A stretch of 64,000 nucleotides of DNA from Amphiscolops sp. MND2022 (taxonomy: Eukaryota), in contig OZ076418.1 in the NCBI GenBank assembly GCA_964187785.1, positions 28,644,001 to 28,708,000 on the forward strand. The letters are read 5' to 3'. Below, one piece after another: positions 4,253 to 64,000 of this stretch. Each line of letters begins with the position of its first letter. Within the stretch, counting starts at the first letter, position 1. The position numbers and the translations under genes are program-made. The notes under the pieces were generated by a model that had not been told where the DNA came from, did not search any database, and was given only the letters and a program-made list of their open reading frames with translations.

Positions 4253-4257
4253 ATAAA

Positions 4258-28280: not shown

Positions 28281-28795
28281 TGTGATAATCGGCTTCCGGC
28301 CTATTTCCGTCAATCGTGATTTTTTCGTCTAACGCATCATTCGCAAGTGCCAGAGGAGTTGATCGTTGTCTTAGTTCGTTCATGTCTGAAAACTGGAAAT
28401 GATCATTTTATCTTTGTCAGTTTGAATATTCGTGTTTTCTCCTAAGAAGTTTGTTTTCTGAGTGAGCAGGACCAGGCCTGTTGTTCTCGGCATCCTCTTC
28501 ACCAGTTGTTAAGTTATTGTTTCTACTTGCTCTGATTTCTTTGAGTGTTTCTTCAAATTTGCTGTTTAGTTGTTCTTCAATCGGTGCCATGTTTGGGTTG
28601 TTTCGCTCAGGTTAATCCCTGAGAAATAACTTCTATCTCGTTGCTAGTTTGTGAAGATTCTGTTAGTTCACTACCTAAGTTCCTGTCAAAATTGTTGTTA
28701 ACATTCTCAGAAACATCAACTGAGAGTCCCATTTTCGTCTTTGTCTGAACACTGAGATCTTACTCTCTGGAGCCTCCGTTTCTTTTGTTTCCCAT
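28281..28795 (-). pseudogene. LTR-encoded Gag leader, element L copy 2
   Basis: Duplicate of 22583-23093. Confidence 0.65.
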
Positions 28796-29829
28796 GGTGA
28801 AAACAGTGTTAGGCGCGAAAATCTTCATTTTTTAAAGAAATAGGGTGAATTGAAATTATACATTTTTCACAAAAAGGAAAAATGTAAAAAATATACACTG
28901 CGAGGTTGTTTGGCAAATTAGGAGTGACTGTCTTGTACGAGTGCTTTTTGTTCTTTTGTTGAATGATTGTGGGGGAAACTGATTTTAAAAGTCTCATCTC
29001 AAAGGATTTCATTGAGCATTTATGTACCATGACCATCAAGTTTTCTCAAATCATCATAACGTCAGGGTTTTGGGGTCAGATGTTAAAAATAAATCATAAC
29101 ATCACATTCTCAGAAGTTCTGAACATAAGCGCTGTAGAAGCGGTGGATTACCGCGGAATAATTGCAAATTACGCAGTCCTTTGTTATAGATCCGCATATA
29201 CTGCTTCGTGAAAATCGAATAATTTAGCTTAACACACTAGCTATGTCGCCCTGGTGTCCAATATGCTGTTTTCCAAACTAAAAATGATGCTGTTTCAATG
29301 AAATTTCTACATCTGCTAATTTACTCATGATACTGCATTTACCGTATTATCAACAATACCGCATTTGTTGTTTTGACATTAATACCGCATTTGCTGTTAT
29401 AGCCGCATATGCTGCTTCATACAAACTGCAGCAGTACAAATTGCAAGCACAGGTACGTACAGTTTCAAGATGCTGCATTCCAAGGGAATCATCATTTTCA
29501 AACATTTTCCGCTAATGATGTTGTACTTGTCCTATTACTGTAAGAAACTCTGTAAATGCATAAAAAACGGTCTCACTTCGTAAATTTGCTTGATAAAACA
29601 AGACTTTGGATCAAGTCAAGAAAAAAATTGTCACCATTTGACTAATTTATTTATTCAACGCGCTCTTTTTCTTCGTCTTAAGATCAACATCAGCAAAATT
29701 ATCATCAAAGTAGAAACAAAGAAAACATCAACAGTTACAGACCGACAGTATCAAAATCTTTATCCAAATGAAGACAACGTAAATATCGACCTACAGAACA
29801 ATCAATTGAAACAAACATACAAGTTCATA

Positions 29830-30865
29830 AAGAAGTTTGATTGTTTCTGATGTTTAGATGTGGTAAGTAGTTTTTGTTTGTCTTTGGACTTTCTTAGATC
29901 AGGTGCAGGATGTTGATCTGGTAAGCTATGCTGCACGCCGACATGTCGCAAGGATACCATGGCGACAGTTCAGCATTTCTGATACAGTTCAATGCCGAAC
30001 CAAATCAGTCCACGAGTGCTCTTGATTGCACGATTCTGCCCCTGGTGCTTTTTTCGAGATATTCCGACCATGGAATGAAGTGTGTGAGGGTCATTGCAGA
30101 GATCAGATCATATGTTTTGGAACAACCAGGACAGTACCCTGCAACTTTCGGCCTTACCGGGGGTGCATTTGTAGTACAGACCTTTCAGTGCCCCTCATGC
30201 TGAATCTGGGTTTGTACGCTGAAGCTTTGTTGTTCATATTGTACGTTGTTCCAATTTTTGGGATAAATTGGAATAGGCCTTAGCAAGTAATGTGCTTGCA
30301 TGACTGGAGGTCCGGTCATCTCTGGGACTCTTTGCGGATCAGGGATTACCACTGAGAAAGCACTCCTATTAGGTATAATAGGGGGATTCACAGCTGTCCT
30401 TGTTACTGGGGCGTTTTGATGACAGGGGCACCTTTTGGACGGGACGTCCGTAACTGTTTCCATCAGCTTGTTCCACGTTCTCCAAGTTTGCACCAAAAAT
30501 GGATCGTCTTCTTCATCTGATGATTCAATGAAGGTCAGAGTTGAGATGTTAGCAATGTTGTCCATGAGTTTCATTCAGTCTATTTGGATGATTGAACCTC
30601 TAGTATCAATGTGCTGCTCTCTGTCGTCAGTCCCTGCCTCACCGTTGTTTGAGAATGAAATTGCTTCTGTTGCCTCCATGGAAGCGGTTAGGGCAAACGG
30701 GACTACTCTGAATCTATTTTCCAGTTGTGCCATTGTGAAGGGTTCCACTGCAAACTCCTCTCCCGAGCTGCTGGAGAAATTAATTAAATCCATGGCGGGG
30801 CTTGTCGTCAAAGGTTCTTTCCCATTGACCGATTCGGTGTTCAGAGGTGTATTTCCCGTCTTCAC
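29830..30865 (-). pseudogene. Accessory ORF-A, element L copy 2
   Basis: Duplicate of copy 1; shares the TGA after IIQID. Confidence 0.7.
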
Positions 30866-32517
30866 TGTTGTATTTTATTGAGTTTTGAGAAGAATAGTGA
30901 GAAAACCACAACAGAACTTTGGCAATTAAACTTACAAATGAATTGCAATTAAGAAACGAACAACTGTTCTACAGAATTTTTTGGTCAGAGTGATGAGAAT
31001 TTTTTTATTTTTATAGAACTATGGAGTTTTTTTATAAATTACTTCAAAAAATAATTTGAAACACCCGTGTTCCCGGTTACTCGGGCAAATCATCGTAGGA
31101 TCTAAGGGAGGAAACGCCGCTAAAAATTTTAATTCCATATAAACAAACATCAGAACTATGACTTTTCTTCTAAAGATCTTTCATAATTCGATTTTTGACT
31201 TTCCGTAATTCACCAGACTAAGTTCTTTCTTCATAATCAAATACCTTGCAGGTCATTCAGGTTTATATGGTAAGAGTTTTCACACTTTAATACTCATTTC
31301 TCTTAAAGTGTGAATATTCATTCGTATAGTAATCATTGTGTAGTAACGTATACGGAAGTAACAATTGAGGTGTACATCGTATACTCCTCACTGAAAACAT
31401 CACTACACGTCAAATTCTCACTAATTAGCAACATTAAAGCATAATGTTATTTCCATTAATTTCCTAAAAATATAATTATGTAGTTTTATAGAGTTTCCGC
31501 ATATTGCGCAGGTTGAATAGTATTGCATTATCTTGTGCAAATTTTACAAAGACAAAGCCTGTCCATATATGGAATACGCCTGTATAGCCTAGTCATACTG
31601 GCAGATCTTTCCAAACCCTTGCACATCCTTCAACCAATCAGAATACAGATAGGTCGCAAACGCCGCAAAACTGACGTCAGCTTTTTGCTTTATTGCCTTT
31701 CTGTTAATCGGCACACCTTCATCGTTCCTTAATTATATACAACCAGATTTTGTCTCAAGTCCATAAAGTTTCTATTGTAATCGTCGTCTTTTCTTTCGCT
31801 TCTTTGCCGTATTTTTCAATACACATTCATAGCATTTTTTATTCTTCGCAGTTAGCATCGTTCTTCTAGTTCCTTTCGATCATTTTAATTCTGCTTCCTC
31901 TGCAGTTTCTGTTAGCTAGCTGACTATTTTCTCACCTTCGATCGGTGTGGTTTTACCCTGCTTTCATGTATCTTGCACTTCAACTTCGTGTTCTACCACT
32001 CGGAAGGGAAAAGATGTCAGAACAAAACGAGGAGATTGAGCCGTCCACACAAAGTTTGTAATGATGTTTAAGGCCATTTGAAATTGGTATAAAACGTTTC
32101 GATATTTGACTTCGTATCCTTTTTCATAGGTTCTTTTTTGAAATTCCCGTTCCAACCGATGAACAATCTCTGATTTCACAGCAGCTTTTCACAGCCCCAT
32201 TTTTGGATTCCCTGCTCCAACTTGTGAACAGAATTTCTGGAGTACTCTAGGTTTCAAAGTGTGAATCGATCAGGTTTGCACAAATTTTGATCCGTTAACT
32301 TCCGTTTCAAACTGATTTCCGTTTTCTCTATTCCTTTGTGTTTCAGTTCCTCTCGATCTCCATATTTCGACGCAAACACAAGCTTCCTCCTCCTTTGGAG
32401 CAATAACACTGCTTATTTTTTCGACAATCCCCGTGATCACTCTACTCCACCGTGATCCATGAAGGTCATGGTACACACGTTGACACATACGGGATCAAAC
32501 ATTCAATAAAAAAAAGT

Positions 32518-34170
32518 ATGAGTATTGATCAAATCGCATCTTCTCCTATCGGATTTGCAATATTTCTGGCTCCAACAACCACTATTGCGGCCTCTCATGA
32601 GGTACCAGCAGGAGGAACATCAACAGAATACGATTCCAACAATCGAGAAAAAATTAAAACACCGTCGTTCACATGGATTTAGATGTATCCAGCAACACTG
32701 ACCGCTTCATCGACATTCTTCATGAGACTCCTTCTGATGGACTGACTGCTCAACCAATACAATGTGGATCTTCCGACTTGGTTCTGGAAAAATTCCAAAC
32801 TTCTCTGCGTCACCACCAACACAAACTCTAACTAATTCTGATTATGTTACAAATTCGTACCTCATGGAACTGGAGCATAGATTGAACGTATTCGTAATTG
32901 GGGCCACTACCACCATTGGTTCTCGCTTGTTAGAACAGCCACCTGCTAGTCCAATAAATAGCACTAGACCTGGGACTGCTTTTAACCGTGCCCAGTTGAG
33001 ACGACCCGAGGCCACCAGTCTTAACCTCTACCACGAGTGCTCAAAGGGAAATGTAAGCGACGATTAGGGAAGCTTTCCAGCAGACCCAGAACGAGTGTAA
33101 CAAGGCCAGTTTAATCGGGTGGGCAAAACTCTATACAAAAGCGGCCTAGGCTTTGGTTGCAATTGTCCGAACAAAGGTTCCGCAAACACCCTGTCAGAAT
33201 CCCCATAAACGGCGATGCAGGGTTTGTCACATTGAATTGTCCTTAGAAACAAAAAGCTCTCTGGAGATTTTATCTCACTGCAGGACAGACCCCCACCTAG
33301 TCCGAGAAAACCGATTCTGTATAGAAACGCCTGTATTACCCTCGTTTGGGCGTGATGACGTGGAACTCGTCCGGATTGCTTTGGACGAAGCGCGGGAGAG
33401 AGCAGAGTTGGAATTCGCTCAGCCTCCCAATTCGGGTCAGTGTTATTTGTTACATAGAGTGCTAGCTCTGGATACTGACGTATTGGATATTGACGTACTG
33501 ACGTTGTCGTATGTTCCCAAATGTGTAGTTTGCTAAATGGACTTCAACATGGTGGAAACTTGAATCTCTTGCACACTCACTGAACGAATTTGGGTCGTGA
33601 AACTAGAGGAGCAACCAGGATGCCTCAATAAGATTGGAATTCGGAACGCATTTTTGTAAGTGTCATTTCATTAAACGTTTCATTCAACCTCCTTATTTTG
33701 TACATAACTATGGCGTTTCGCAGGGTATTCTCGTCTACATGTTCGCGAATTGATGACTTATTCAACTTCTTCAATCAGTCAGTCCGGCCATTGTTCGTTA
33801 TAGCTCAGCACTAACGACAATGTTTCACGAGTAATCGTTGCATTTGGTCCAGCAATGTTCAATATTACCTGTGTCTTGCAGATTTTCCTTACACACTGTT
33901 TATTGCCAAGAAAGCCCTCGAGGCCATCAGTTTCTTCCTCAGTGTTCGACATAAAATACTCCCTGTCTATTCTCTGTTGGGGTTTGACGGCCGATGGCTT
34001 GCAAGGCTCTCGTTGTCGAAATAAATCAGGTTCCTTCGACTTGCATTGTGGCGACGTTTGGTTAGGATGATCTGGATAAAATTCTGGCTGCATCATCACA
34101 GTCTCTACATTTTCCCCTGATAAACCTTCGTACAGCACTTCAATCAACGTGAATCACCAAACTTCCTGAA
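32518..34170 (+). pseudogene. Accessory ORF-B (antisense, spliced; CxxC...H-x5-H zinc finger), element L
   Basis: NPHKRRCRVCHIELSLETKSSLEILSHCRTDPHLVRENR...TP, SQMCSLLNGLQHGGN, DWNSERIF|GTAAGT (donor 33656). Right boundary approximate. Confidence 0.7.
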
Positions 34171-34624
34171 TTACGAAAGGTATGTGTTTGATAGTTTTAC
34201 ATCACTGTTTTCATCTTCATTTTTATAATCATATAGTACTCGCAGTTTTCTGTAGACTGTGCACAGTGTGTATTTTGCTTTTAGGCAGTGATCGGAAAAC
34301 CGCATTGTACAGCATAATTTGTCGAATTCAGCGATATTTTCCGACTTCGCGTCATACTGCCACCCCTCATAATTTCTATTTTTTGCTGTTTTTTTCTGAC
34401 TTTCGTCATGGTGTTTCATGCTGGAAACATCATAAAAACATTCCACGATGCTGTTTCGTTCTGAAATTGCATAAGTGTTTTCATTATGTTGTTTTCTGTT
34501 TAAAACCGCATAACACCATTCTGCCTTTCTCTATTTTAATCATATGTTTCATTTTGGCCCAAAAACCTTGACGAGACAGTGGACAAGGACAAGACTTACG
34601 CTGCTAACATAGTCTTGATCAAAA

Positions 34625-35410
34625 ATGTCTTTCTACAAGGTTAGTTTCTTTCCGTATTCCTTTTCTATGCTTTGTGTCCATGTCCTTTGTTCTCAGTTTT
34701 ATTTTGTTCTGATCGATCCGCTTTCAAGGGAGTAACTGGAGTTTCAACCGAAGGCGTCCGCATCTACAGCGCCTTTGCCACCTTCGCTTACACTCAAATA
34801 CAATCCATCTTTGCCAGACTTTTTTCTTGGGACAGATTTTTATCAATTCGTCACTCTGCTGCATTAGTTCGCCCAACTTATTCACTATCCCACCTGATTT
34901 CGCTGCAACTTTGCCCTCTGAGTTCAATTCGTGTGTCCGGAGCGTGTAATCCTCCTTGGTTGTAGTTCCGAATGTCTCTGGGCTATTTACTAACCCTCGT
35001 ACTGTTACCCCTATTTTCGCCGTATTGGAGAAAGGAAGGACTCTCTTTGATGACGGTTCATTCTTTGTTTGGACGTTACTTCTCCTTGTCCCTTCCAACG
35101 CCGAACTCTCTTGGATAGTATGGATTCACGCTATTCATGTACGGTGACTGATGAAGAAAAACAATGGGCTACCATTCAAACTAGTCCTAAACCCTCTGAA
35201 TCGATTTCAGTCCGGTCGTCTTCGGAATTTGTTTCTGCGTCACCGATCTAATTTGGTCATAGCTCTTCAGGAAAAGCTATTACAAAATCCCCTGTTCTCG
35301 AGACTCCCGTCGTTGCAGTACCCCGTGTTATCTCAGAAACGCCTTTTTTATCTTTTGATAAACCTGATTCCTCCTAGAATCTTACTCTGAAAAAGAAGGC
35401 CTCTGGACAG
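34625..35410 (+). pseudogene. Accessory ORF-C (antisense, adjacent to pol end), element L
   Basis: ATG 34625, 57-nt GT-AG intron 34640-34696, motif FNSCVRSV*SSLVVVPNVSGLFTNPRTVTPIFAVL shared with element R. Confidence 0.6.
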
Positions 35411-35671
35411 AAATGTTTCATCCATTTGCAAAGTAACAATATGCTTTGAATTTGTTATGTCTTGTTTGTATTTACCTGTTCATATCGTATGTACTTCTAG
35501 TGTCACAATTTATACACCCATCAGGCTGAGTACGTCTGATTTGGTATTTTCTATTAAATGATCAGGAAGAGATCTGCCAACTTTTGTTCAAGGAATTAAA
35601 AACGAAAAGAAAGGAGCAACTGAGACCGTCATATTATTAGTTAGGGCCTTTGAGTTTTTTCATCTGTCTTT

Positions 35672-42459: not shown

Positions 42460-42637
42460 AAGATGTTAAAGATCATCTATTCACAGTGAGACCAAAAAGA
42501 ACCCTATCGTATCTAGATATGAACTTAAAGTATCTTGAACTGAATATTTAGGTATCAAACGTTTATCTTCTAGGCAGTTTTCGCTTTCAGCCCCTATTTT
42601 CTAGAAAAAACTTTTGCGGTTGCAAAATGAGGCCGGA

Positions 42638-42982
42638 TGTAAACTATTTGGATTTCAACGATGACTCATGTCATAAACAACTCTAAAACCCAATCAAAAA
42701 CTACTACTTGAACTCATTCTGAATTTGAAAACTACCTATAAAATGACGAAGTTTTGTTCGATGATTTACCCCCTGGTGAAAACTTGATGAATTTGAACCT
42801 CTATTAATAAAGATTCCATTGAATAGAAATGATAGACCCTGATTGATTGGAACGGTCTATCCTTTCTTTAACGTGTCTTTTGCAAATGAGTATAGAGGCC
42901 TACCAATCGATCTGGGCCGCTCTGAACGAGCCAACAGCAAGTGAATGATTATGTAAAGGCAAAGACGCACAAAGATTTCATA
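42638..42982 (+). repeat. 3' BEL LTR
   Basis: Starts TGTAAAC after the PPT; followed by the TSD. Confidence 0.92.
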
Positions 42983-42987
42983 TCCTC

Positions 42988-48209: not shown

Positions 48210-49309
48210 TGTGGTGATCCTCCTCATCAGATTCTTCGTTTGAATCTATTGTTACATCTACGTCAGATTCATTATGGAATAATGGACTTACAGGATGTTT
48301 TAAGTCCATCATTTTTGAAGTTCTGAGAGGGTAATCGTCATGTTCAGAATTTGAATTTTCGTTATTAGATGCGCGAACTCCAATAGATCTATTTATCCCG
48401 GATTCCGAAGGTTGTGGTCTTCCATTTCATTAGCATCTGACCTCGGGTTTGTTACTTTTGATACACTTTTGTTGTATTTTAGCTCTTTCAAAATTGCTTC
48501 TAGTTTATTGTGCATTTCTTCCCTCGGTTTTCCATTCTCTCAGTATCAATATGTGTCCATACTTGTATCTCATCGCTAATCTGACTGGGTTCTCTCAGCC
48601 GGGTTTCAAATTAGGTTCAACTAAACTTTCCTGAACATTCAGATTAGAATTAGTTGAAGTTATATTACCTGTTTCTAGGGATTCAACTCTAGTTTCACTT
48701 GCTTCTCTTTCGGCTTTTGGGTTCTCTTATTTCCCATTTCGCTCAGTAGAAAACAAGTTATGTCTGCTGGGGAAGAATTTGAATTACTTTTTCAGATTGG
48801 AATCCACACTTTAGAGAAAACAATGAAAACAGCGGAAATGTTAGCAAAAGTTTGATGAAATTATATCAACTGCTCTTGACGGGAGTTTTTTTGTTCTGAA
48901 CCTTTCTATAGATCCTCTTTTCACAAATAACAAAAGAATGACAAGCATTTTTACAAATGTCATAGATAGAATCCTGGAAACCCAAAAATTCAATAACGTC
49001 AACTTTAGGTAATTCTTTTTATATCGCTTGCACAATCACGCAAATGTGACTAAATGGTCTAGAGACCCTAGGACAACACAGCAATTTCACATATTTAATG
49101 TTTGATGATGATCAACTACATAACATTCAAATACGGCACTTTTGCCTGAAAAACGTATAACACCGCATATACGTTATATCTTTGACTGTATAATGACGTA
49201 TAACGCGTATGAACATTATCATCAAAAGTGAACAATAATACATGTATATGTAGTTCAATCCGCATGGTAACTTGTAGTTTTGGTGTGAAAAGCGTATGGT
49301 GACGTATGT
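48210..49309 (-). repeat. 3' LTR of element R (minimum extent)
   Basis: Collinear with 62832-64000; includes ATG GGA AAT AAG at 48737. The outer boundary cannot be fixed within this window. Confidence 0.8.
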
Positions 49310-49699
49310 TCGCCAGTTTTTAAACCGCATAACAATGTATGCTGGTAGTGATGAAAAGTATGTTATCGCATATGCTGGACATCTAAATACGCATAGTGAC
49401 GTATATTCAAAACACGTATGATGACGCATCCTCAAAAGATCATATTACGCCTAATGACGTATATTCGTAATGTCATTTTACGTATAATGACGCATTTTTG
49501 GAACTAGTAAACAGTTCATTGATGCTCACTCGTTGTTCTAATTGCAGTATAGTTACGTATAATGGAAATAAAAAAATTATGAATGGGGGTCAATTGAGCA
49601 AAAACAACTTTAGAGGACCTAGAAAACAGTCCAAAAGCAAATTCATCATCAAGAAAAAACAAATAATTTTCATGGCAAGACATAAACATCCCTAAGTTG

Positions 49700-50790
49700 A
49701 GTTTTAATGGGGTTTAAAGTGTTTGTTTATTGGGTTTCTTCAGATGCTCCTTTTCTATAGCTGCAAAACGGAACCATCGCATCTCGAGGGATGCGACAGT
49801 CCAGCATTTTTGAAAAGGAACAATGCTGCTTCGAAACCATAGATGAACGCTCTGGATTGGATTGCTCTCTCTTTAACTGTCTCACCTTCGTATTCTGTAG
49901 CCACCAGATACTCTCCCAGCGTCTCTAGAGCGATTTGATCTTAACATTTCCCGCAGAGATCGCAGTAATCCGCAACTTTTGCAATCACTGTGGGTACGAA
50001 TCGGACACTTTTGTCTCTCGTGCGCGGGTTTGAGTAGAAAATTCATACTAGGAGTGGTGTTAAAGGAAAACACAATTGTACCGTGGGCTGCATCGGGTGT
50101 GGCACTTGCTGGGTTTCATGGGTAGTCCCACTCATAGTAAGAAGGAAATAGCATTGGGATAGATTGAACCCCGGAACATTTCCATGTGTGGTCCTTTGTG
50201 GTTGAGCCAAATTACCGATGTTAGCAATGTTCCATCGGTTCACTTGTTTGTGGGTGTTTGAAGTTTGCTAACTCAGGCCTGTCATTGAGCGGGTACACTG
50301 GTGTTGGTCGCGGCAGGATTCCTCTATTGTCGGACCCTGCCCCCAGAGTTGGAGGGATTTTAGCAGTTTGGCGACCATAACTATTTGGACTTTCTTCAGG
50401 CCCATTACCCATTGTCCATGGGAAAATATTCCCATCCTCAAACTCACTATCTATAAACGAGTTTGGGGAAGCCACTTGCTCACTCTGGGAGTCTCCAATT
50501 AGTCCCGTAAGGTCTATCTCCAGCTGGGTCCCCGAAGCATTTGTCACTACTTCTTGCTCCAGAGTCACGCTTGTATTAGGGAACAAGGTAGCCGTTGTCG
50601 CCCCAACAAATGCTGACATCAGGTTACTCCCAGACGGGGTTATCCGGAACCTTCCTTCCAGTTGGGTAGTGTCTCCAGGCGGGATGGAGAACGCATCCTC
50701 TGACTCGCTTGAGATGTCCATCACATCGGGTGATATGGGGGAATACAGACAATCTTCGTCAATATTAAATTGAAGCTTGTTCATTTTCAA
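49700..50790 (-). pseudogene. Accessory ORF-A, element R (first 189 codons open)
   Basis: QLEGRFRITP, NSYGRQTAKIP, LPRPTPVYP, KVADYCDLCGK, ERAIQS, KNAGLS...RCD. Confidence 0.72.
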
Positions 50791-51978
50791 AATTACATAG
50801 AAGTTATTTCGAGTTTTGGGTTTTCAAAAGTTTAACAGTGCGAGTGACTTGCATTTTTATGAAGACCATATAGTGAAGCTTCCTCTCAGGTTTTCTTGAT
50901 TTTGATAAAAACCCGCGGAATGATTGAGTGTCATGGTTGCGTGGGTTTAACGAAAACCTTATTTGGGACGGGGATGGTGAACTGCCATACATGTAAGGCG
51001 TTAGGTTTGAGTTTCCTTCCATAAAGGTAAATAAACAAAATAGGTGTGATTTCTTCCACATCTTCTTTTGTCGGTAAATTCCGTTTGATCATCCCAATTT
51101 TGTTCAACAATATTTGAAGTTGACGTAAACAAAATGATCATGGCTTATGATTTTTCAAAAATGAATGAGTCAATTACTGCATGTACTTTTATTTAAAACA
51201 TCAATGGAATTTATATCAAAGAAAAACATTTTACATGAATATCACAGTGTTTCACTAAGTTTTCAAATCTCATGACCATATTATGATGTATCATTGAGAG
51301 TCCCGCACTTGAAAAGTGGACAATCTACTGTGGTGAGTATGGGCACCAAACAATTCGTATATGGTGGAGTTGTGTTAGAATTTACTTTTTAAGTTAGTAC
51401 AGAGCGTGTCTTCACATATCTTTGCATGTGTTATTCCAATCTGTTGACGACGCATACTCATCTTTTTCCAGCACAAACACCGTCGCATACCTGATAGTGC
51501 CAGAATACGTATAGTATCGCATACTTGTCATCACTCGAAGTGAATACAGCGTATGTTTGTTTACTTTATGGCAGCATTTTGCCACATTCCCAATTCCACT
51601 GGTTACGTAATATCCAGCATACTTGGACGTGTTTCCAAAGTGTATATTAGCACATGCTCTTCTGATTATAATTCCGCCTAGCGTCGTATAAGCTGCCTTC
51701 GTGTTTCCGCATACTAACGCATGTTCGTAAGTCATAATTACGTATACATCCGTATATTACTCATCTGTAACTCCGCATGTTTACGCATATTCACAAATTG
51801 TAAATGCCCATGCTACTGTTTATTGTCATTCTTTTAATCCGCGAGTTCACACATATCCACTATTAAGACTTCGCAGGCTGCCGCATATACGCATGAAATA
51901 ATTCCTTGGGCTACTGCATGTTTGTTTGCTTTCGCCATCTTTCATGTTGATCTAGTGCCAATTACGTAATCAGACACC

Positions 51979-52016
51979 CTGGCAGAAGTGACTGACGTTT
52001 AAATTGACCAATCAGA
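51979..52016. promoter_or_regulatory. Promoter-like segment between divergent ORF-A and ORF-B, element R
   Basis: CTGGCAGA, TGACGT at 51993 and CCAATCAGA at 52008; plus-strand acceptor at 52203-52204; AACTTCCG motifs at 52586 and 52609. Confidence 0.5.
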
Positions 52017-52745: not shown

Positions 52746-54900
52746 ATGGAGAAGTCTCCCGATCGCTCGCCGTCCAAAATCTACACTCCATTAATGGTCG
52801 CTGCCCCTAATACAGTTGCTGTCCCCACGTCTGCCACTGATGATGGACAAGTCCATGTGGTCACCATTGACAGATCGACCGTTGATTCAGATATCATCGT
52901 GACTGATTCCGCTTCGTCTGTTGTGGATATTATCACTGAAACCCCCCTCAATGCCAGAGAGTCCTGTTACACCAATCGTTGCCGGGATCACTGTGATGAA
53001 TATGGATACTTCTCCAAACGTGGTTTCTGAAAGGCTTCCTGAGAATCCTGTTCTTCCTTCTGTTTTGCAAACTCAATCACCACGTTTGACGCAGATTTTG
53101 CTTCTCTCACAACAGGCAACTTCGCCTCAGGCCTCGTCAGATGTCGCTTAATTGTCTACAGCTATTGAAGAAGAAGATTTCAATATGATTACCGACAATA
53201 TCTCGTCAACCAATGATGTGAATGAACCATTGGGGCTAAATGTCCCCAACATCAGCATAACCCGCTATGAGATCCTAGCTTTGACCAAAGTCCTAGGCAA
53301 GATACCACCGTCCTTTCTCGAAAGTATTGAGCCTGAGACTGGACCTGAGTTTTCCATATCTATAGTTGAAAACCCTCCAAATCCTCTTTTCCAACATTCA
53401 CCAACCGCATGAACTAGTGCACCTGATGCTGATCAATCTTTCCGGGGGCAACTTGAGAATGATTTGGTTGAGTTACGAGTGGGCGCAACAAAAGACAGAG
53501 ACCAAGATGCTCCCTCAAAAGTAGTATGCGGCGCGAACATCCAGTCTTAAAAGTCTCGGCTATTGGCCCCATAGACCGGCATAAGACCCCTCACAAAAGG
53601 TGGTGTCGCGTATGCAGGTTTGAACTTTCCTAGATGAGTCGTGGTGTCGTGGAAGTACTAGCAAAATACAAAACCGACTCACACTCAATCAAAGAGCATC
53701 GTATACGGATGGACACTCCCGGAATGACTTTATCCGGGTAAAATAAAAATGGGTAAGATAAAAATGGGTGCGTACTTCAGAGGTTGGCCCTGTCTGTAGC
53801 CAAGAATGTCTCCAAAGCGACCTATTCATATGTCCCGCAATTAGACTCTTATGGTTTGTTGGTTGGTCAAGATTCAGTACCTGAATTCGGCGCTGAGAAG
53901 AGTCCTGTAGAAACAGTCAGTTCTCAAATCTGTCTACTTGAGATCGGTCTACGCCGTGGTGGAGACATTTTTTGCCTTTCTGACATCTTCGAAGTGGAGT
54001 GCACACCGACATTTTGTAAGTATCCCGTTTATGTTGCTTTATTTGTGTGTTTTTATTGAGTCAATCATACGCGAAACTATATATGTCGTTGCAAGCGTTA
54101 AATGAAGTTTTCTTTCACGCAACATTTTGTAAGGCTGTTAAATTACGCTACTCTTGTTTACCAGGGGATCATCATCCACATGTTCCAGGAGTTAGTCATT
54201 TACTGTGTGACTAATGCAGTCTTTAATGGAACTTATTCTTTATCCCTGATTCATCTGGCTACCGAATCCCATCTTTATTTCAGATTTCTATTTGGGAAAC
54301 GTGTTCCATCAGGTGTGTATTAGAATTGGACTACGAGGGTTTGTGGTTCCCCGAACGATTCTGACTCTCATCGTTTCTCTCATCAGTTTATTCGAGACTC
54401 CCCCGCCTTGTGTATGCTTGATTGTGATGGGAGAGAGATTGAATTTCTGCCTTACTTCCGCACTTCCTGGACAGCAACGCTCTAATCTCATCAATAATTC
54501 GGTATCGAGGAGTTCGAACGGTGTCTAGCGCTCCTAACGGCCAAAATTATCAAAAAGCATGACTGCAGGACTATCACTGACTTTTTGCTGATGAAACTTC
54601 GTACCGCCTTGGAAAAAGACTGGTTACATTCCTTACCACTACTACGAAAGGTATAGTATAATTTCTCTTTATACTGGAGGTTTTTTAATCCTTTAATTTC
54701 ATTTCTGTTTCATTTTTGGTGTGCGATTTCTCCACAATACACACTGGATGAAGCGTCTTCCTTGATTGATTGCTTGTCTCAAAACTGGAACCGAGTATTG
54801 GAGCACCTTACCCATGTTGTCCGTTTACCAGCTCACCAGGTTCACTTGAGAGAAGTATGTAAGACTGGTACAGAGCTTTTGGAGCAATACTGACATCTTC
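52746..54900 (+). pseudogene. Accessory ORF-B (antisense, spliced zinc-finger gene), element R
   Basis: Ser/Thr/Pro-rich N-terminus, PHKRWCRVCRFELS*MSRGVVEVLAKYKTDSHSIKEHRIRMDTP, SQICLLEIGLRRGGD, KWSAHRHF|GTAAGT (donor 54016); further acceptor near 54280. Right boundary approximate. Confidence 0.7.
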
Positions 54901-55581
54901 GATTGTCCTGTTTCATTTTAGCCCAACATTTGAACGAATGCTTTCCTTCGAATACTGCGTATCTAGCACGCTTCTTCATCATCTGATGTGTTTTTGACCA
55001 TTGTTACTAATTTCATTAATTGTTTTGTTCTGTTAGTATAGATTTTTACGAGATCATGCATTTCCAATTTCATTTACTTTTCCAGATAGATCTCGTCTGA
55101 AAATTTCGTCGAAGCGATTCATTCTCAACTCTATTAATCAATCACGATGTTTTGCTTCATTCTGACCACTCAGCGATTATTCTCACGTGCTCTCGATCAT
55201 TTCCGCAGAATCACGCTTATGCGATATACCATAATCCAACCAATATGCGTATATAGCAAAATACTTCACATATACTGACTACCTAAGATCAAACTTGTCT
55301 TCCGCATAATGACATTTACACGTCATTTGAATTTCCGCATGACAACGCATTGTTGAAAACGAGTTTCCGCATAATGAAGTAATTGCGCCCTTTGAAACTC
55401 TTCCTTGTTGCGCATTTTCAACTTTAATCCCTGTGTAGTGACGTACAAACGTCACTACTTGGTTTGTCCGATTACGTTGTATTGGAGTGAATTGCACCCG
55501 TGAATTCGTTTTAGGTGTTGGTTTCTGCATAGCGGCCTATAGTTGATTTCTGGTTCCGCATGCTGACGTGTAGACACAGAT

Positions 55582-55730
55582 GAAGAAAACGTATATTAGC
55601 GTATAGCTGAATTCTGATTCCGCATGGTGACGTATATTCACCCTTGAAAAAAACGTATAACAGCGTTAGCTGAATTCTGATTTCGCATGGTGACGTATAG
55701 TCGCCCTTGAAGAAAACATATAACAGCGTC
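55582..55730. repeat. ~64-bp tandem repeat (2.3 copies) within a CG(C/T)AT-rich tract
   Basis: GAAGAAAACGTATATTAGCGTATAGCTGAATTCTGATTCCGCATGGTGACGTATATTCACCCTT, repeated with mismatches. Confidence 0.85.
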
Positions 55731-55898
55731 TAATCACCATCGATAAAGACGGATGGAGACGGCTAATTGAAATTTCGAATCCGGGAGAACATTTTATATA
55801 CCAATGCATAGGGGATTGGAGACAGGCTATACTATAATGAAGTCCTCTCACTTGTTGTGCTCATTACTCAACTTGTTTTTCATATACCTTTTGTTTAG

Positions 55899-56982
55899 AC
55901 AATTCTTCCTTCTCTGAGGCGTATCGTCAAGTCGACAATGGGTTTAGACAGTACAATCAGGTCTCAGTTTTTACCTATAGTCAGCTCCAAAATTTATTCT
56001 CTGTCATCTTCCTTGAGAATAGATCAGACTGGGATGGATATTTCAAAATCGATCTGACTAATTCTGATTTACCAGTCAAAACTCCAGCGGATTTTGTCTC
56101 ACAGCCTGATTGCCATGCCTTGATTGGCTCTAGCTGATTTCCACGAGCTGGCACTTTTGTGGAACACGCTCGTCCATTCTGTAAATTAAATTGTGCTGTT
56201 TTGCTCAATCATTAAAGTGTCATATCGGAACTCATCCGCGGTTTGTCAGCTTTCGACTATGCCGTAATGATAGATGGGAAAGAGAAGAAATACTAATCTG
56301 CAACTGAGAGTCTCACTGGTCACTTTGTCTCCAATGGATAAGGTTACGTCCGTGAGCCTATATCGCTCGTTTGCCATTCAATTAAGTTCTGAGAGTGGAA
56401 TCATCAGAGACGATTGGATCCAATTTCTCATCAGCCATCATGAAGTGCAAAGTCGTCCTGTGCTCCTACAGATCTCCAAGTACGCTTGTCTCTGTTTGCC
56501 ATCTGTGGTAGCAGAACCTGTCCAATTCCGTATTCCTGTGCCAGGATTAGTGTCGGCGCTTTCAATTCCGTAGTGCGGAGTTTACTGTTGTCCTATGTCA
56601 TTGCTCCCAATGTATCTAGCCTTTACAAAAATTTCAAGACTGTTTGCCGGGTCTTCCGACTACTGGGACGTTGTCCCGGTCTCAACCGCAATAGAAAGTT
56701 CCAGTTTGGAACGTTTTGAAGGGAAACGAGGAGCGAAAAGTTGCTCTAATCGAAAAAATGGAAGTTGCTTATAAGAAGTCCGTTCTGCGGGGGGAAGGAT
56801 TGCCTCTATTCTTGGATATATCTACGCCCAGTGCTAGTAGGTCAGCCAGTACAAGCAATTTTCCGAATTCTGGGCCAAACCTAGGACGCCTTTCTCTGTC
56901 TGTCTCGCGTTGCGAAACTGATTGGGCTGCTGGTAGTTCCAAGAAGGTCGCTCCGAAAACTATCAAGTCGAAGAAGAATTGA
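55899..56982 (+). pseudogene. Accessory ORF-C (antisense), element R
   Basis: Acceptor TTTTGTTTAG| at 55898 followed by ~77 open codons; motif FNSVVRSLLLSYVIAPNVSSLYKNFKTVCRVFRLL; ends in a Ser/Lys-rich tail. Confidence 0.6.
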
Positions 56983-57168
56983 CTTTCAAACTTATGCTCT
57001 TTCTGCTTATTGCGTTGTCTGTTTATGTGATTTGTATTTCTTGTGCTGGTGGTTTCTTGCTACCTGTATTACTGTTGGTAGATAAATCACAGGGAACTGG
57101 TATTAAAGATGCAGAGTCTCTGGATCTCCAAAGAGTAAAGTTGAGAAAAACTTTGTTTACTAGTCATC

Positions 57169-60100
57169 TTAGTATCTGTAAGAGTCTGAATAGTTTGGGT
57201 TAGGGTTGGGATGTAAATTGTATTTTTCACCACGAGTATTCAAGTGTTCTTCTTGTATTGGGGTATTTTAGGGGATTTCTGGGGTTTTTTGAATATCATC
57301 GTCTGATGGATTAGTTGTATCGTTTTGAGTTTTTTGGGTTTTTTTTATCAACCTCACTGATTTGTTGTGGAGTTTCATTCTGGTGATTTTCATCTGGTTC
57401 AGCGGTCTGTTCCATTGGGCGCCGTCCTCTATTTGTTGAAGATTTTGCGGATGGTGGGTGGTTTTTTTCGGTATTTGAATTGGGATGTATTCGGTGTCCT
57501 CAGTATTTTGTGAATACTTTGAGGGACTGTCATCAAAGGTGTTTGAGCCAAAGTTCGTGTTCCATGATTCGGCATGTAGATCGTCATTTGCTATAGGCAA
57601 TTGGTCATCTTTTTGCCAATCGGTTTCCCGAACAAAAATGTCTGCTAATGGGGCCTGCGAATTGAATTTGCGCAGACGATTCTTTTGTAGCAGTTGCATT
57701 TGGCTAGTATCAAGTCTTCGGACAAAATGGTTCTTTTAGGGAAGATTTTTTCAACTTTATATGGACCACCCAACCGAAATGGTTTCTTGTTGCTTGTGTG
57801 TCAGCCTTTGGGTTAAGAATGTAACAATAGTCCGTCGTTTCAAGCGGAGCTGCTTTTGCTTTTCTATCATAATGGGCTTTATATTTGAGATAAGACTGCA
57901 TGATGTTCTTCTTTGTTTGATCGAGAAGAGTTCTCACTCGTTTATGGATTTCTTCAGCAAAGTCAGTTTGTGGTTGATATCTAGGATTTGGATTATAGCC
58001 ACGTTTATAGTCTAGGATATTAAGTGGTATCCGACCATGGAAGACTCGTGAAGGCTCACAACTGAGTGATGCATGGTATGTGGTGTTGTGGTTATGGACA
58101 GCCAAAGGGAAATGTTTACGCCAGTTGTTTCCAAACTCGTTCCGGTTTTTAGAAGTGTTTTTACTGATGCATGAGTTCTGTCAAGGAGTCCTATTGTTTG
58201 GGCATGATTCATCGTTGCATGTTTCAGCTCAATTCCAAGCACCGCAGCATTTTCATGAGGTACATGTGCATGGAATTGTTTCCTAAATCCGTGATTATTG
58301 TTGTTGGTAGGTAGGTGTCTTTGCATAATATATCCCTTATGACTCTTGATGCTGCTGTTGCAGTGATCCGAGTTACGGGATAAGCAAAGAAGTATCTCGA
58401 GAAGACAAATATTGCGGTCATGATATGGCCATAGCCTCGACTCGGAGGAAGGTTTGGCAAAATATCCATCTGTAGGTTGTCTTCCAGTCCAAAATCCCAT
58501 TCTGGAGAATTAAGGAGTTCTGTTTTGCGTTGGTATCTAAAGTCTGTATTTCATCGAAAGAGTCTCCATCTAATTTGGCTCTCAGGTTTCTGAGGAGTAT
58601 GTCATTATTCTGTTCAAGACGAGTTCGTGCATTGTCTCTGAAGTATCTTGGTGATACTGAAATCAACGCCGATGTGGGTTTGTGAAAATGTTGCAGTTCA
58701 GAGACCGCATTTTCGGGGTCATTGTGGGTTTCAGTTTGGGTTTGTTTTCGTATGTTTTGTTTTTCTTTTCAAAGTTGATTTTCCTCAATTTTGTCATCAT
58801 CAAGACGATTATAGATTTGATCTTCTTCGACGATGCCGGATGATTAGATATTTACTTCGATTGCTTTTGTGTGAATATCGTTGCGAATAGTTATTTCAAG
58901 CTTTTCTGTTGGGTCTACTTCTTTTCTGGTTAAAAAATATGCCGCTGTGTTCATTGAACCGGGAACATGGGCGATTACGAAATTGTATTGCAATACATAA
59001 TCGCAAGCATTCCGGAGTGCTGGAGGGATCATTTTTGGTTGGAAAAATCAGGTTAATGATCAATTGTTAGTGAACACGATTACTGGGAAGATGTTTCCCC
59101 ACATGAGATGTCCAAATTCAACAAGTGCGAAATATATGTGAAGGAATTCTTTCGCATAAAAAGACATTTTAGTTTGTTTTGGATTAAATGTTTTGGATCC
59201 AAACGCTATGGGTGCATATGTTTTGCGTTGGGATTGTAGTTTTTGTTTCGGGTCATCTTTTATCATGATTGCATATCCAGCATCTGTGAAACTGGCATCA
59301 GACATGACTATGAGTTGCGTTTTTTAGTGGTTGTTTCAGGGCCAATTCGCAAGAATTTTCAAGGAGTTTGTTCAGGTTTGTGAAGTCTTCTACCATATTT
59401 GTTGGTATATAAAACTTGGAAGCTTCTTTGAGGAGTTTGAAAAACGGGGTGAACTGTTAAGAAAGGCGTGGAATGTAGTTTCGGTAAAAGTTTAAATATC
59501 CGATATACCTCTGTAACGCCTTTTTTGATTTGGGAAAACGAAGCTTTGTGAGGAAGCCTTCCACCTTGTCGGCTTGAGGGGCAACTCCATCTGGTGTGAT
59601 TGTACGTCCAGGAAATCAACTTGTTCAACTCTAAAATGGCACTTTGAAATGGAAAGTTTCAATCCCGTTTTGCGTATGCATTCGAAGACAGTTCTGATGT
59701 TTGTACACAATTGTTTTGTGTCATTCGCTGCTATGACGATGTCATCGACATATTGGGCACATTGGTCCGCTTTGATTGCTTTTTCCAGGTAGTCTCTCAT
59801 GAATCTTGAGAATGCAGAAAATGATCTGCTGAGGCCCTGGGCAAGCCGGCGATAAGCGAATGTTGTGCTTGCAAATTAAAGGCAAGCATTTGAATGGATT
59901 GATAATCTGCCATTTGGAGGCAGTGGTAAGCCTGGGAACAGTCTAATTTGCAGGAAAGTTTTTTACTTCCATGTGGTGGGCTGCATCCGATAAGGTGCTA
60001 AGCGGGTGGTGGTTATTGACATAATCTTCAGTAATTGTTAGTTAGTTCAGAGTTTGCTAAATTTTCGGAGGTCAACAAGAAGTCTGAGACGCACACTTTT

Positions 60101-62832
60101 TTGCGTTGTGCAAAAATTGAGCTTACGTATTTGGAAAAAGGTAGGGTTGTTATGTTATCATACTTGTGTAGGAGTGCAAGTTCTACTGTGATATCATCTT
60201 TGAGATTAATTTGAGTTGTCGGACTTTGACCGTCAGCAGGTTTGTCATCATTGGGTGTGAGTTTTACTTTGAATCCACAATTTATGCTGATATCAAACCG
60301 ATGTCTAGCAAAAATATTGTAGAACTCGATGAGAATCTTTTTGATTTCTTGTCGTTCGTCAGTGTTCGTTCGTTCGTTCTGAGTGTTGTATCAGACCAAT
60401 CGAAGTGTGAAAGAAATTCTGTTCTGGAAGTTTGATAATCATGTGGGTTGAGTTTCTCGCGTTCTTGGAGTTCGAGAAGTTCGTTGTAGATACGTTGCTG
60501 GATTGGAGTGTATGTTGCTGGATCGCCCGATTCTTCAGGAGTAGGGAACCAGTATGTTTCCTGTTCTGGATTTGATTGTGGAACCTTCAAGAGTTCATTT
60601 ATGTAGACCTCCGTTGTTTCTTCATGTTGTATCAGAAGGAAAATAACGCTGGATCTACTGGCTGAAAATGTTTGATTTATGCTGTTGTGAGAATCTTGAA
60701 ATCCGCAAAATGGGTGTCAAGTGTTATTGTGTATGGTAGTTCAGAAAAATTGATGATTTTTTATCAAATTGCATTGTTGTTGACAGTAGTTAATGATGCT
60801 GTGTTAAAGATGCTATCGTGATTTTCAAAATGTTGGGATGTAGTGACTATTCCAGTTGCGTCATAATCCATCAGATGGAGCCTTTTGCTTGCAATGGCGA
60901 GTGTTCCGCCTGGTCGTAAAGTGTAGGTCTTTTCTGCAAACAATGGTGTTGCTGGTCGTATGGATAGTTGGGTGTCGGGTTTGAGCTGCAATGAAAGATA
61001 GGGAATGGTTAAGAAGCCTTGAGTGACATGAAAAAATGCATTATTTGTTCTTACGAAGCACATACCCAACAAGTGGGTATAGTAACTTTTTGATGATGAT
61101 GAAGTTTTTGTTCAACATGAAGTCAACGACTTCAATTCGAGTAATACTGTGCCGATTGGGACCTCTAATTGTCCATTGGCCACCATTATTTGGACGTTTG
61201 ATGGAGGACCAGTTTCTTTGATCGATTCGTTTGCAAGCAACTATGATTTTATTGAGGTCTTGTTCGGAGATTGCACTTGTGAGAGCTCCGGTGTCAATAA
61301 GACCATCAGGTGTGAGTTTTTCAAAGTCCATTGGTATGTAATACATGTGGCGTTTTCTCTTCAGTTTTGAAGAGGTTGAAATTGGGAGATATGACAAGTT
61401 TCGTTCCTTATCAAATTGTATATATTCGTGAGAGCTTTATCTAAAAGGGGTTGTTTTTTTTATTGCAAGATGGTTTTTCTGTGACATAATTTTTTGAGGT
61501 GTGGTGAATTTCTGGGATTAAGTCGATTTTGGGTGGGTTGGTTGTTGTGGAAAGTAGTTGTCAGGTGCATCGTGCAAAAGTTCATATAAGTTTTTGGGTT
61601 GAGTTTCTGGATTTGAGTGTTGAGAATTTTCCGTTTTTAGTTCAGATACAAAAATTGTTATTTTTGAAGGTTATGGGCTCGGCGGATGCTGCCAGTCATC
61701 TGCTAAATTTTGTTTTTGTGGTGAGTTTGTGTAAAGGCGTGGCGTTCCGATTTTAAATCCTTCAAAGAGGATTGTTGTTGTCGTTCAATTTTCTGTCTAA
61801 CTGGCTTATTGGCCTGTTTGTAATCTGTAATAACTTTGTTTTTAATCCTCTGTTAGGTTCCATTTGGGTGGCCTATTATCCATGTTAGCACCAAAGTAGC
61901 AATCTTCTTCGTCATGACCCGGGGCTTTGCAGTTAGCACATTTAGGTGAAGTCCGGGTCTTCTTCAAGTTTACATCGTTTAGCTAGTTTGGGGCAGTCAG
62001 TCATTGTGTGGCTGGCATCTTTGCAATAACGGCATTAATCATTTTTGAGTGTTATCAGATTTTGTTTTTGGCGTTTGTTTTTTGGTCTTTCCGTATTGTT
62101 TTTGTTGTGTTTTTCAGTGTTTTGTTCTTTTTTGGTAACGGTCATTTAAGTTTTAACGAGGGGTACATTTCTCTTTCAAGATGTTTAACGATTTGATCAT
62201 ATGTGCCATTTTCAAGGTAGGCTTGATTAATAGACTTTTTGAGGTGGGGAGGCATTTCACCATAGAGTGAATTCTCTATCATTTGGTGGGCGTAGTCCCC
62301 AAACGCTTTCTCGGAACTTTCTTGGAGCTCTTCTAGGATCCCAGAAGTTTTTGGTTTTCTGAGTCAAATGAGAGCCTGTTGAATCTGTGTTTCGCAGATG
62401 TAGTGGACTCCGGTTTTACATATTTTCTGCAAAAGACCTTAAGAATATCTTCTAAGGTCGTATTTGGGGTTCTTGATTGTATGTTTTTGAATGTTTTGAG
62501 AGCCACACTTCTCAGATGTGCGTGAAACTGGTTAATTTTCTCTTCTGTTAGGTTTGGTTGCATTCGGAGTGTTGTATGAAACAAATCTTCAAAATATTCA
62601 AATTTCTAGTTTTTCTCGTTTTTGCAATTGAAAATGAGTGTGTTCTTGGGATAAAAGAGACTGTGGGGAGTTTTTGTTCGCCAGTTTTTCTATTGCTAAG
62701 GCAATCTAGTTAACTGGGTCAAGTGGTTGTGTCAACAAAATTTGGCAAATTTTGGTGTGCGTGGGATCCTATTGTGTCGTTTAATTTTTGTGAGTTTTCT
62801 CTAAGGAGTTGTCGGTTGGCTCCCGTCACCAT
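57169..62832 (-). pseudogene. gag-pol: Gypsy gag-pol of element R, heavily frameshifted
   Basis: Gag FHTTLRMQPNLT...KYVKPES, knuckle CANCKAPGHDEEDC, PR LIDTGALTSAI, RT QYVDDIVIA, RH SDASFTDAGYA, IN MDILPNLPPS...TIITDLG...QTIGLLDRTH; the integrase zinc-finger segment appears deleted near 58540. Confidence 0.93.
62818..62831 (-). promoter_or_regulatory. Primer-binding site of element R
   Basis: TGGTGACGGGAGCC immediately after the LTR end ...GATTATCACA; similarity to the 48210 copy stops exactly here. Confidence 0.85.
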
Positions 62833-64000
62833 GTGATAATCCTCCTCGTCGGATTCTTCGTTTCAATTAATGGTTACATCTACGTCAGATTCATTATGGA
62901 ATAATGGTCTTACAGGATGTTCTAAGTCCTTCATTTTTGAAGCTCTGAGAGGATAATCGTCATTTTCAGAATCTGAATTTTCGTTATTAGATGCGCGAAC
63001 TCCTATATACTTATCTATCCTTGTTCCCGAAGGTTGTGGGTCTTGCATTTCATTAGCATCTGACCTCGGGTTTGTTACTGTTGATACACTCTGGTTGTAT
63101 TTTACTAAAGTACTAAAATACTAAATTACTAGGCTAGTAGCTATTTCAAAATTAGTTCTAGTTTATTGTTCATTTCTTCTCTCATTTTTCCCATTCTCTC
63201 AGTATTTTTCTGTTCAACAATCAGCGTCCATACTTATATCTCATCGCTAATCTGACGGGGTTCTCCTAGCCGGTTTTCCAAATTAGGTTCACCTAAACTT
63301 ACCTGAACATTCAGATTAGAATTAGTTGAAGTTATACTACCTGTATCTGGGGAATCAGCTCTACTTTCACTTGCTTCTCTGTCGGGAGATGGGGTTGCTA
63401 GTCACCTCGACCTTCGGTTTCTGTTATTTCCCAATTCGCTTAGTAGAAAACAAGTTATGTCTTTTGGGGAAGAATTTGAATTATCTTTTCAGATGGGAAA
63501 TCTAAACTTTGGAGAAGACAATGAGAACAGCGGAAATGTTCGCAAAATTTTGAAGAAATTATACCAACTGCTCTTGATGGGAGTTCCTCTCTGATCCTCT
63601 CTTCCCAAATTACAAAAAAATGACAAGCATTTTTACAAATGTCAAAGAATCCTCGAAACCCAAAAATATAATAACGTCAACTTTACGTAATTCTGTTTAT
63701 ATCGCTTCCACAATGATGCAAATGTGACTAAATGGTCTAGAAACCCTAGAAAAACACTGCACTTTTACATATTTAACACTACAATTGCTGTTTGATGATG
63801 ATTAACAACATAACTTTCAAAGACTGCACTTTTGGCTGAAAAACGTATAACACCTCATATACATTACATCTTGTACTGTATAATGACGTATAACACGTAT
63901 GAACATTATCATAAAAAGTGAACAATAATGCATGTATATAACAGTTCAATCCGCATGGTAACTTGTAGTTTCGCTATGAAAAGCGTATGGTGACGTTTGT
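62832..64000 (-). repeat. 5' LTR of element R (partial)
   Basis: Direct repeat of 48210-49309; encodes the Gag leader. Confidence 0.85.

Follow-up and report, generated by a model that had tools for sequence, protein, structure and literature searches.

How does a gene with introns persist in an element that is copied through RNA, and what could such a gene do there? The question is raised by a 64,000-nucleotide stretch of the genome of Amphiscolops sp. MND2022 (contig OZ076418.1, positions 28,644,001 to 28,708,000; hereafter the window), repeat-dense eukaryotic DNA in which several long terminal repeat (LTR) elements, resembling those of acoel worms, are present. One of them is a decayed Ty3/Gypsy element on the - strand, and on the opposite strand, between its pol gene and its 3' LTR, lies an open reading frame (ORF) that we call ORF-B. 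Comparison with a sister element in the window indicates that ORF-B is a real antisense gene with introns, extending from about 52746 to 57030 on the + strand while gag-pol runs on the - strand. The antisense gene, its zinc finger, the shared introns, the placement in two elements, the frame that was open at insertion and the motif arrays around it are all supported at the level of sequence. The reading that we favor, in which ORF-B is an element-specific DNA-binding regulator derived from a dead transposase, has in our judgment an even chance of being correct.

An earlier note on this DNA had placed an antisense gene, carried by an LTR element, at 52746-54900, and had recognized shared motifs in a second element; our comparison bears out both points, the + strand coding region starting near an ATG at 52746, antisense to gag-pol. 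The region at 52746 aligns to positions 33150-33533 of the sister with a local score of 126, against 26 +/- 4 (maximum 43) in 1000 shuffles, and between 52875 and 57025 the two copies have nine blocks in common, in collinear order (sum E 2.8e-24). The 3' blocks (55877-56023, 56480-56665 and 56993-57025) match sister positions 34690-35472 in order, and therefore the gene runs about 2.1 kb past 54900, where it had been thought to end; donors at 54651 and 54855 likewise speak against that limit. ORF-B is predicted to occupy some 4.3 kb of its own, with about 1000 codons and at least three introns. Identity between the copies at codon positions 1, 2 and 3 is 0.54, 0.65 and 0.34 (209 codons in the + frame, in blocks selected by protein similarity). 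We rejected the idea that ORF-B mirrors a - strand gene, since the longest - strand ORF has 96 codons and third positions of the + frame are the most variable. An env gene was discarded for its wrong strand and the nuclear features of ORF-B, and a duplicated integrase for the order of the finger ligands, CCHH here and HHCC in integrases.

A search of 1.84 billion representative sequences gave 59 matches to ORF-B at E <= 0.001, two of which are the ORF of the window itself and an unrelated protein. Fifty-eight of the 59 constitute a single ORF-B-like group of many subfamilies, often broken; named cellular proteins appeared neither here nor in the exon-2 search described below. We aligned 54 of the sequences, leaving out P0002, P0012, P0015, P0051 and P0053, the last being a repeat protein set aside because only 22 columns aligned, at a probability of 15%. 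Searches for longer forms through a word index found nothing among 454 candidates of 225-2000 aa and 7998 of 824-2350 aa; that no annotated full-length protein was seen is a weak blank, because the 225-2000 aa search also missed relatives present among the 59 matches.

These matches are ORF calls made on unspliced DNA, and can therefore be used as a test of the splice donors. The first intron (54016..54164, + strand, 149 nt, phase 0, GTAAGT...CAG) has a 68-nt counterpart in the sister at 33656-33723. Both donors read GTAAGT in phase 0 after R-x-F codons, exactly at 54016 and 33656 as the earlier note had placed them, and the residue pattern is shared again beyond the acceptors, whose CAG ends at 54164 and 33723. 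Among the 30 homologues that reach this junction the next residue is Val in 26 and the one after it Ser in 22, the two residues that a phase-0 GTAAGT dictates, and then conservation collapses. The four remaining rows, without Val, look frameshifted or misaligned. The second intron (54651..54719, +, 69 nt, phase 0) has a degenerate acceptor in this copy, and its donor at 54651 stands in the same context as that at 34180 in the sister. A separate search with exon 2 yielded 11 proteins (query included) among 34 candidates, and in nine of the 11 a Val follows a conserved L-H-K before the sequences diverge, in agreement with these donors. A third donor, GTATGT, lies at 54855, precisely where P0061, which reads through intron 2, comes to an end; exon limits beyond it are tentative. 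By these comparisons two phase-0 introns are common to both copies and marked in the homologues, and it is very probable that ORF-B was transcribed and spliced. Since ORF-B is antisense, its introns would not be spliced from the genomic RNA and would be copied along with the element, as the earlier note had deduced from the arrangement of the strands. They may have persisted, then, because the gene was acquired as DNA in antisense orientation, although a gain of introns after the capture is possible instead.

Exon 1 (52746..54015, +), which perhaps starts some 10 codons ahead of this position, is predicted to encode a low-complexity N-terminus of some 280 residues, a basic KR-x-RP motif (at about 53487), the zinc finger and a helical region. 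It is 75-76% identical to the intact relative P0029; an N-terminal SP-x-K-[IV]-Y motif recurs in five of the 59 matches and the basic motif ahead of the finger in 33. Exon 2 (54165..54650, +) would form an RNase H-like alpha/beta domain followed by helices, judging from a structural model and 10 further ORFs, and exon 3 (54720..54854, +), helical, aligns to the C-terminus of P0061. Possible short exons within 54922..55250 (+) are tentative: what marks them is only a pyrimidine-rich AG acceptor ahead of each of 54922 and 55086, and no homologue supports them. The 3' exon or exons (55900..57025, +) comprise the blocks matching the sister, and ATTAAA at 57102 (+), where ORF-B and pol end tail-to-tail, may be its poly(A) signal.

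The carrier can be delimited from its LTRs. The 5' LTR (62832..64000, -) runs past the window edge and matches 48210..49309 (-), which is the minimum extent of the 3' LTR; the two are in direct orientation with 89.5% identity across 1080 aligned columns (Kimura two-parameter distance 0.113), so that the copy must be old. A primer-binding-site-like stretch (62807..62831, -) that starts with TGG at 62831 adjoins the 5' LTR. The decayed gag-pol (57163..62800, -) contains, in this order, a gag knuckle, protease, reverse transcriptase, RNase H and integrase; Pfam detects RVT_1 (E 5e-15), the protease (E 0.03) and zf-CCHC (E 0.13), and the positions of RNase H and integrase were set via the sister pol, in which Pfam finds RT_RNaseH (E 5e-8) and, weakly, integrase, and which is 60% identical to that of the carrier over 564 codons. 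About 7.8 kb separate the end of gag-pol (about 57163) from the 3' LTR. The sister, which a BEL/Pao insertion interrupts, is arranged alike in its 3' part: pol, ORF-B (+), an intergenic stretch, a second accessory gene that we call ORF-A (-), and the LTR. Sequence comparison places its LTR end, ORF-A and intergenic region at 28281..32500 (-), the 10 terminal bases at 28281 being identical to those at 62832, and its ORF-B at 32500..35472 (+, start approximate), with the finger at 33216-33296, exon 2 at 33724-34179 and intron 2 at 34180-34266. An antisense ORF-B therefore lies between pol and the 3' LTR in both of the two window elements having that region. The linkage of ORF-B to Gypsy rests on these two; a third remnant, at 47132-46858 (-), lacks such context. 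This remnant belongs to a distant subfamily (it matches P0060, E 6e-7), and an ORF-A partner was not found for it.

Both copies of ORF-B in the window are pseudogenes. In the carrier, exon 1 has stops at 53149, 53410, 53631 and 53739 and frame changes near 52916, 53480 and 53993, and exon 2 is broken near 54272, 54475, 54483 and 54495. Counted with frames picked by best match and with one unaligned short insertion left uncounted, stops amount to six in 628 covered codons of ORF-B and seven in 564 of pol, against a non-coding background of 5.4%. This density, similar to that of pol, indicates that ORF-B was open when the copy inserted. Such a frame is hard to reconcile with an independent hAT transposon that nested in the element, or with a functionless passenger, which we hold to be very unlikely. 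It is true that nested insertions are common in the window, as the BEL/Pao element inside the sister pol illustrates, and that the remnant at 47132-46858 is an orphan. However, site and orientation are the same in two diverged elements, with ORF-B ending about 140-200 bp from the pol stop in both. When the 25 longest inverted-repeat pairs of each region (of 66 and 50) are compared, none brackets ORF-B at equivalent positions, though an ancient, eroded terminal inverted repeat (TIR) is possible. The CxxH motif and the first catalytic acid are also absent. The plain hAT transposase with its own TIRs that the earlier note had envisaged as the contrary case thus left no sign in these searches.

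The C-x2-C-x16-H-x5-H finger is the most recognizable part of the protein. In the copy at 52746-54900 it is broken (53604..53684, +), with a stop in the spacer and Lys in place of the third ligand (53664). The sister copy keeps it complete at 33216-33296, and may be the "element L" to which the earlier note assigned it; it is present in 44 of the 59 matches. The ligands, on whose conservation that note had made its proposal depend, are strongly kept in the alignment (C 47/50, C 52/52, H 53/54 and H 50/53), while median pairwise identity of the finger core is 56%. Two letters of the longer motifs in that note are peculiar to the window copies: the residue that follows P-H-K is W in 33 of 50 and R, as had been written, in three; and in the SQxCxLxxGLxxGG block the Q (26/33) and the Gs (28/33 and 31/32) hold, and the C (4/33) does not. 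Fingers can be grouped by the four residues next to the conserved S-L of the spacer on its C-terminal side (MSRG in 17, KTKG in 8 and MTKG in 4 of 44), and the two window elements differ both in this group and in the arrangement of their arrays.

The kinship with BED fingers and hAT transposases that had been suggested is only weakly apparent, and the origin of ORF-B must be judged from several tests, each of them weak, which together make a hAT origin likely. The Pfam zf-BED cut-off is passed by one of 54 sequences (P0049, 22 against 20.6 bits), with one more below it. All named rows shown in an atlas search are hAT-derived (ZBED5, GTF2IRD2, FAM200 and hAT-dimer clusters; score 0.80-0.82), and the same search with exon 2 gave no usable match. 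The exon-2 model has low confidence (predicted local distance difference test score, pLDDT, 42.7) and its elements follow the order b-b-b-a-b-a-b-a, which is that of RNase H. With it Foldseek listed 45 rows (E 0.02-0.2), 41 of an RNase H-type fold, including 26 retroviral integrases and 10 Prp8, fold classes which we presume from general knowledge. VIA-align does not single out RNase H folds for this model, wide structure searches of the ORF-B models gave middling Z only, and the BFVD search returned terminases and integrases (E 0.01-0.2), without any named hAT. The helix at the intron-1 junction and strand 1 may match Buster-type transposases residue for residue in their spacing, a resemblance to which we give no weight. 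The helical region contains two modelled helices (residues 120-154, pLDDT 64-69); a homodimer prediction for it scored 0.01 with the alignment unused and counts neither way. As regards an insertion domain and a C-terminal hATC region, a long helical part and 3' exons are present, with no Pfam match in these broken pieces; nor did Pfam return anything useful for 12 window pieces or exon 2. The probable order of finger, helical region, RNase H-like domain and long C-terminal part agrees with that of Hermes, namely BED, dimerization, catalytic and insertion domains (PMC10368747), and is also that of Kat1 and of the Buster-type ZBED5, GTF2IRD2 and FAM200 (PMC10368747, PMC4763223, PMC3606216).

If ORF-B does derive from a hAT element, catalysis has most probably been lost. 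The CxxH motif, which follows the second Asp in hAT transposases (PMC4763223), is absent in all 11 exon-2 ORFs. At the end of strand 1, in the modelled register (positions 20-25, 10 rows), no Asp or Glu is found and Gln occupies eight of 10 rows. Asp stands at the end of strand 4 in eight of the 11 ORFs, and the third acid could not be placed. In this ORF-B departs from host ZBEDs, which retain the DDE triad (PMC3606216), and from hAT elements also in its low-complexity N-terminus and in the TIRs, which were not found around it. The earlier note had thought the capture of a DNA-binding protein from a DNA transposon plausible; what looks captured is a whole transposase-sized protein and not a finger alone.

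Two results speak for rival readings. No profile, PDB, atlas or structure search produced a significant hAT match, and the finger as modelled is a slightly closer fit to U1/matrin-type RNA-binding fingers than to those of the BED type. The first leaves some room, though not much, for a captured host gene, or another gene with a zinc finger and an RNase H fold, that came to act as a regulator. Several short introns are typical of host genes, but a group of matches with many subfamilies, often broken, is what repeats would give, named cellular proteins do not match, and domain order and size suit hAT. The second bears on an RNA-binding accessory protein, serving in Rev/Rex-like export, in packaging or to counter small-RNA silencing, with the arrays acting as RNA elements. 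The best structural neighbors of the finger (those of TUT4, TUT7, TUT1, SF3A and JAZ), the H-x5-H spacing and the strand bias of the arrays fit such a role, which we nevertheless consider unlikely. Searches of the PDB with parts of the ORF-B sequence gave no relevant match.

The arrays emerged from counts of every possible 6-mer per 500-bp bin, made without prior choice of a motif, in which CGTATA and its variants concentrate at 49000, 51500, 55500 and 63500. The motif CG(C/T)AT occurs 17 times at the LTR end, 16 times in the intergenic region and 14 times in the long ORF-B intron, where dinucleotide shuffles give 2.0, 3.9 and 2.0 (none of 200 reaches the observed number in any of the three regions); gag-pol shows no such enrichment (8 against 5.5, reached by 38 of 200 shuffles). 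The arrays are biased in strand (16:4, 16:2 and 14:2). The first lies at the U3 end of the 3' LTR (49154..49500, +), inside the LTR at least to 49309 and with a 33-bp tandem at 49414-49495, and five copies of the motif are found as well in the visible part of the 5' LTR. The second, with 14 copies, is located between the divergent ORF-A and ORF-B (51451..51895, +), and the third in a probable long intron of ORF-B (55248..55700, +), where a 63-bp unit is tandemly repeated at 55538-55729. Spacings of 10 bp and 33 bp occur in 13 and 14 pairs, respectively, among the 45 motifs, which are paired at 10 bp in units of about 33 bp; random placement gives 1.1 pairs at 10 bp, and none of 5000 placements reaches 13 at any single spacing. 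Array limits were chosen after the clusters had been seen, and tandem duplication alone can produce periodicity. Despite this caveat, three separate places show the same motif with the same spacing. The arrays of the sister are weak, with no 10-bp pairs and a 26-bp tandem in the duplicated copy; of all 6-mers, CCGCAT is there the most enriched in the corresponding non-coding regions (7 against 0.5). Upstream of ORF-B, TGACGT and CCAATCAG (a CCAAT box) at 51993..52015 (+) are candidate promoter elements. On the + strand CCAATCAG appears only at 52008, 31634 and the duplicate 25942, so that a CCAAT box precedes ORF-B in both elements. A conserved promoter sequence was sought between them and discarded, intergenic similarity being no better than in shuffles.

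By analogy, these arrays are laid out like the targets of plant VANC proteins, which bind a motif arrayed in one orientation across non-coding regions, among them an intron of their own gene (PMC5735166); in hAT elements, BED fingers bind short repeated subterminal motifs (PMC10368747, PMC4763223, PMC3606216). That the ORF-B protein binds CG(C/T)AT arrays is about as probable as the opposite. A different use of the protein can be imagined, as an integration or nuclear-import cofactor: a dead transposase tethering the cDNA complex to chromatin, with the arrays bound by ORF-A or host factors. Conservation of the whole scaffold and not just of the finger, the basic motif in 33 of the 59 matches, the unexplained conservation of ORF-A and the overlap of TGACGT with several array units would all suit it. 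Contact with the integrase is without support, however, and one array lies in an intron of ORF-B and another upstream of it, as with VANC; we regard this role as improbable.

The regulator that we favor could have arisen and acted as follows. An ancestral Ty3/Gypsy element would have taken up a hAT-type gene as DNA, antisense, into its 3' region. The gene would then have lost its ends and catalytic residues, keeping the finger, a dimerization-like helical region and the scaffold. An internal promoter, located between ORF-A and ORF-B, would drive its transcription, and the spliced RNA would give a nuclear protein of about 1000 aa that may act as an oligomer. This oligomer would bind same-orientation CG(C/T)AT pairs, 10 bp being one helical turn, with the U3 end of the LTR, the divergent promoter and ORF-B's own intron as predicted targets. 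In this way ORF-B might serve as a family-specific, autoregulated activator or anti-silencer; if it binds the arrays at all, activation is somewhat more probable than repression.

Antisense ORFs (aORFs) between pol and the 3' LTR have been described in plant Gypsy elements and in Boty, their origin and function being stated as unknown (PMC7264820, PMC11963269). ORF-B resembles those of Retand/Tat elements (Grande gene23, RIRE2 and Retand TRP28) and of Botrytis Boty in being an antisense gene, in a long 3' region, kept across copies (PMC7264820, PMC11963269). The plant region also contains tandem arrays; a regulatory role has been proposed for the gene, and the domain encoded there has been named Transposase_28. 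Yet Pfam finds no TRP28 (PF04195) in the ORF-B pieces, and ORF-B differs from plant aORFs by its C2H2 finger, its introns and its length; in the Retand paper neither "intron" nor "zinc" occurs in the main text (PMC11963269). For the Grande aORF an internal promoter of its own and a nuclear protein have been demonstrated, whereas ORF-B has a candidate CCAAT box only. The VANC genes of VANDAL, Mutator-like elements of Arabidopsis, are likewise element-encoded multi-exon accessory genes (PMC5735166), and their arrays, like ours, are dense, in one orientation, tandem-built and different between families; ours are strong in the carrier and weak in the sister. VANDAL, however, is a DNA transposon with VANC binding and demethylation demonstrated, and for ORF-B binding is a prediction; no homology to VANC came to light, Pfam and PDB giving no relevant match of any kind and a direct comparison lying outside these searches. 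Spm TnpA and other regulators are former transposases whose catalytic residues were lost (10.64898/2026.08.24.746577). They either remain within the DNA transposon they came from or have turned into genes of the host, in contrast to ORF-B with its retroelement carrier, and the text contains neither "retrotransposon" nor "LTR" as whole words (10.64898/2026.08.24.746577). The HBZ protein of HTLV-1 is another antisense-encoded nuclear regulator of a reverse-transcribing element (PMC11963269), nuclear location being proposed for ORF-B; its gene begins within the 3' LTR (PMC7264820) and overlaps with genes of the sense strand, while ORF-B has a region to itself, an internal candidate promoter and an unrelated sequence. 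HBZ is a spliced bZIP protein. Rotifer LTR elements have captured sense ORF3s (PMC5408684), and Arabidopsis Copia elements produce multi-exon antisense RNAs that are non-coding (10.1101/2024.04.02.587720); the parts available of PMC8220671 and PMC9911081 describe no such antisense gene. Literature searches aimed at this design, judged from listings beyond the papers cited here and with Repbase, Dfam and GyDB outside their scope, turned up no antisense gene of transposase origin and with introns in any LTR element. Taken as a whole, the picture of a Ty3/Gypsy lineage that domesticated an entire hAT transposase as a dead, multi-exon antisense regulator, diversifying together with the arrays of LTR, promoter and intron, is a tentative one that we think rather more apt to fail than to hold in full. 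It would amount to an anti-silencing circuit of the VANC or TnpA kind across transposon classes and outside plants, with ORF-A as a possible partner.

The ORF-B family offers a candidate origin for antisense accessory genes, an inserted DNA transposon, a route said to lack support for the plant aORFs (PMC7264820), and supplies a reason for introns to persist in an element copied through RNA. Because a candidate target can be named in the arrays, its function is directly testable. Were ORF-B to bind them, one class of transposon would have tamed the enzyme of another as a regulator, and sequence-specific counter-silencing would extend beyond plant DNA transposons. Dozens of subfamilies with varied finger-loop residues would let the co-evolution of protein and motif be traced. 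Genes of this type are also prone to mis-annotation as host zinc-finger genes.

ORF-A (49701..50784, -), in sense orientation and head-to-head with ORF-B, matches sister positions 30844-29852 (E 3e-9) with 37-41% identity and has no Pfam match; it has an acidic low-complexity start and, near its C-terminus, a conserved block with CxxC. The 3' end of the LTR also encodes an acidic stretch, whose reading frame continues across the primer site as far as the gag leader (63200-62690 and 48450-48211, both -), with a weak counterpart at the sister LTR end (28434-28281, -, E 0.86). A 5.7-kb tandem duplication (21664-27342 and 27356-33034, 97% identical) takes in a LINE-like fragment, the LTR and ORF-A of the sister, its intergenic region and the beginning of its ORF-B, and stops short of the finger. 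The BEL/Pao-like element in the sister integrase (36612-42983, +) has LTRs of about 770 bp, 94.8% identical, and a Glu/Ala-rich repeat at 40779-41027. The window has no tRNA genes. Elsewhere it contains a nearly intact BEL/Pao polyprotein at 1-4271 (-) and a short-LTR Gypsy element at 15830-20874 (+; LTR of 157 bp, 97%), with a 1020-codon ORF preceded by one of 210 codons (15970-16602). Just ahead of the latter element, the region 14753-15655, which has imperfect inverted arms of 50 nt and tandem repeats of 15 bp, is possibly a small non-autonomous DNA element.
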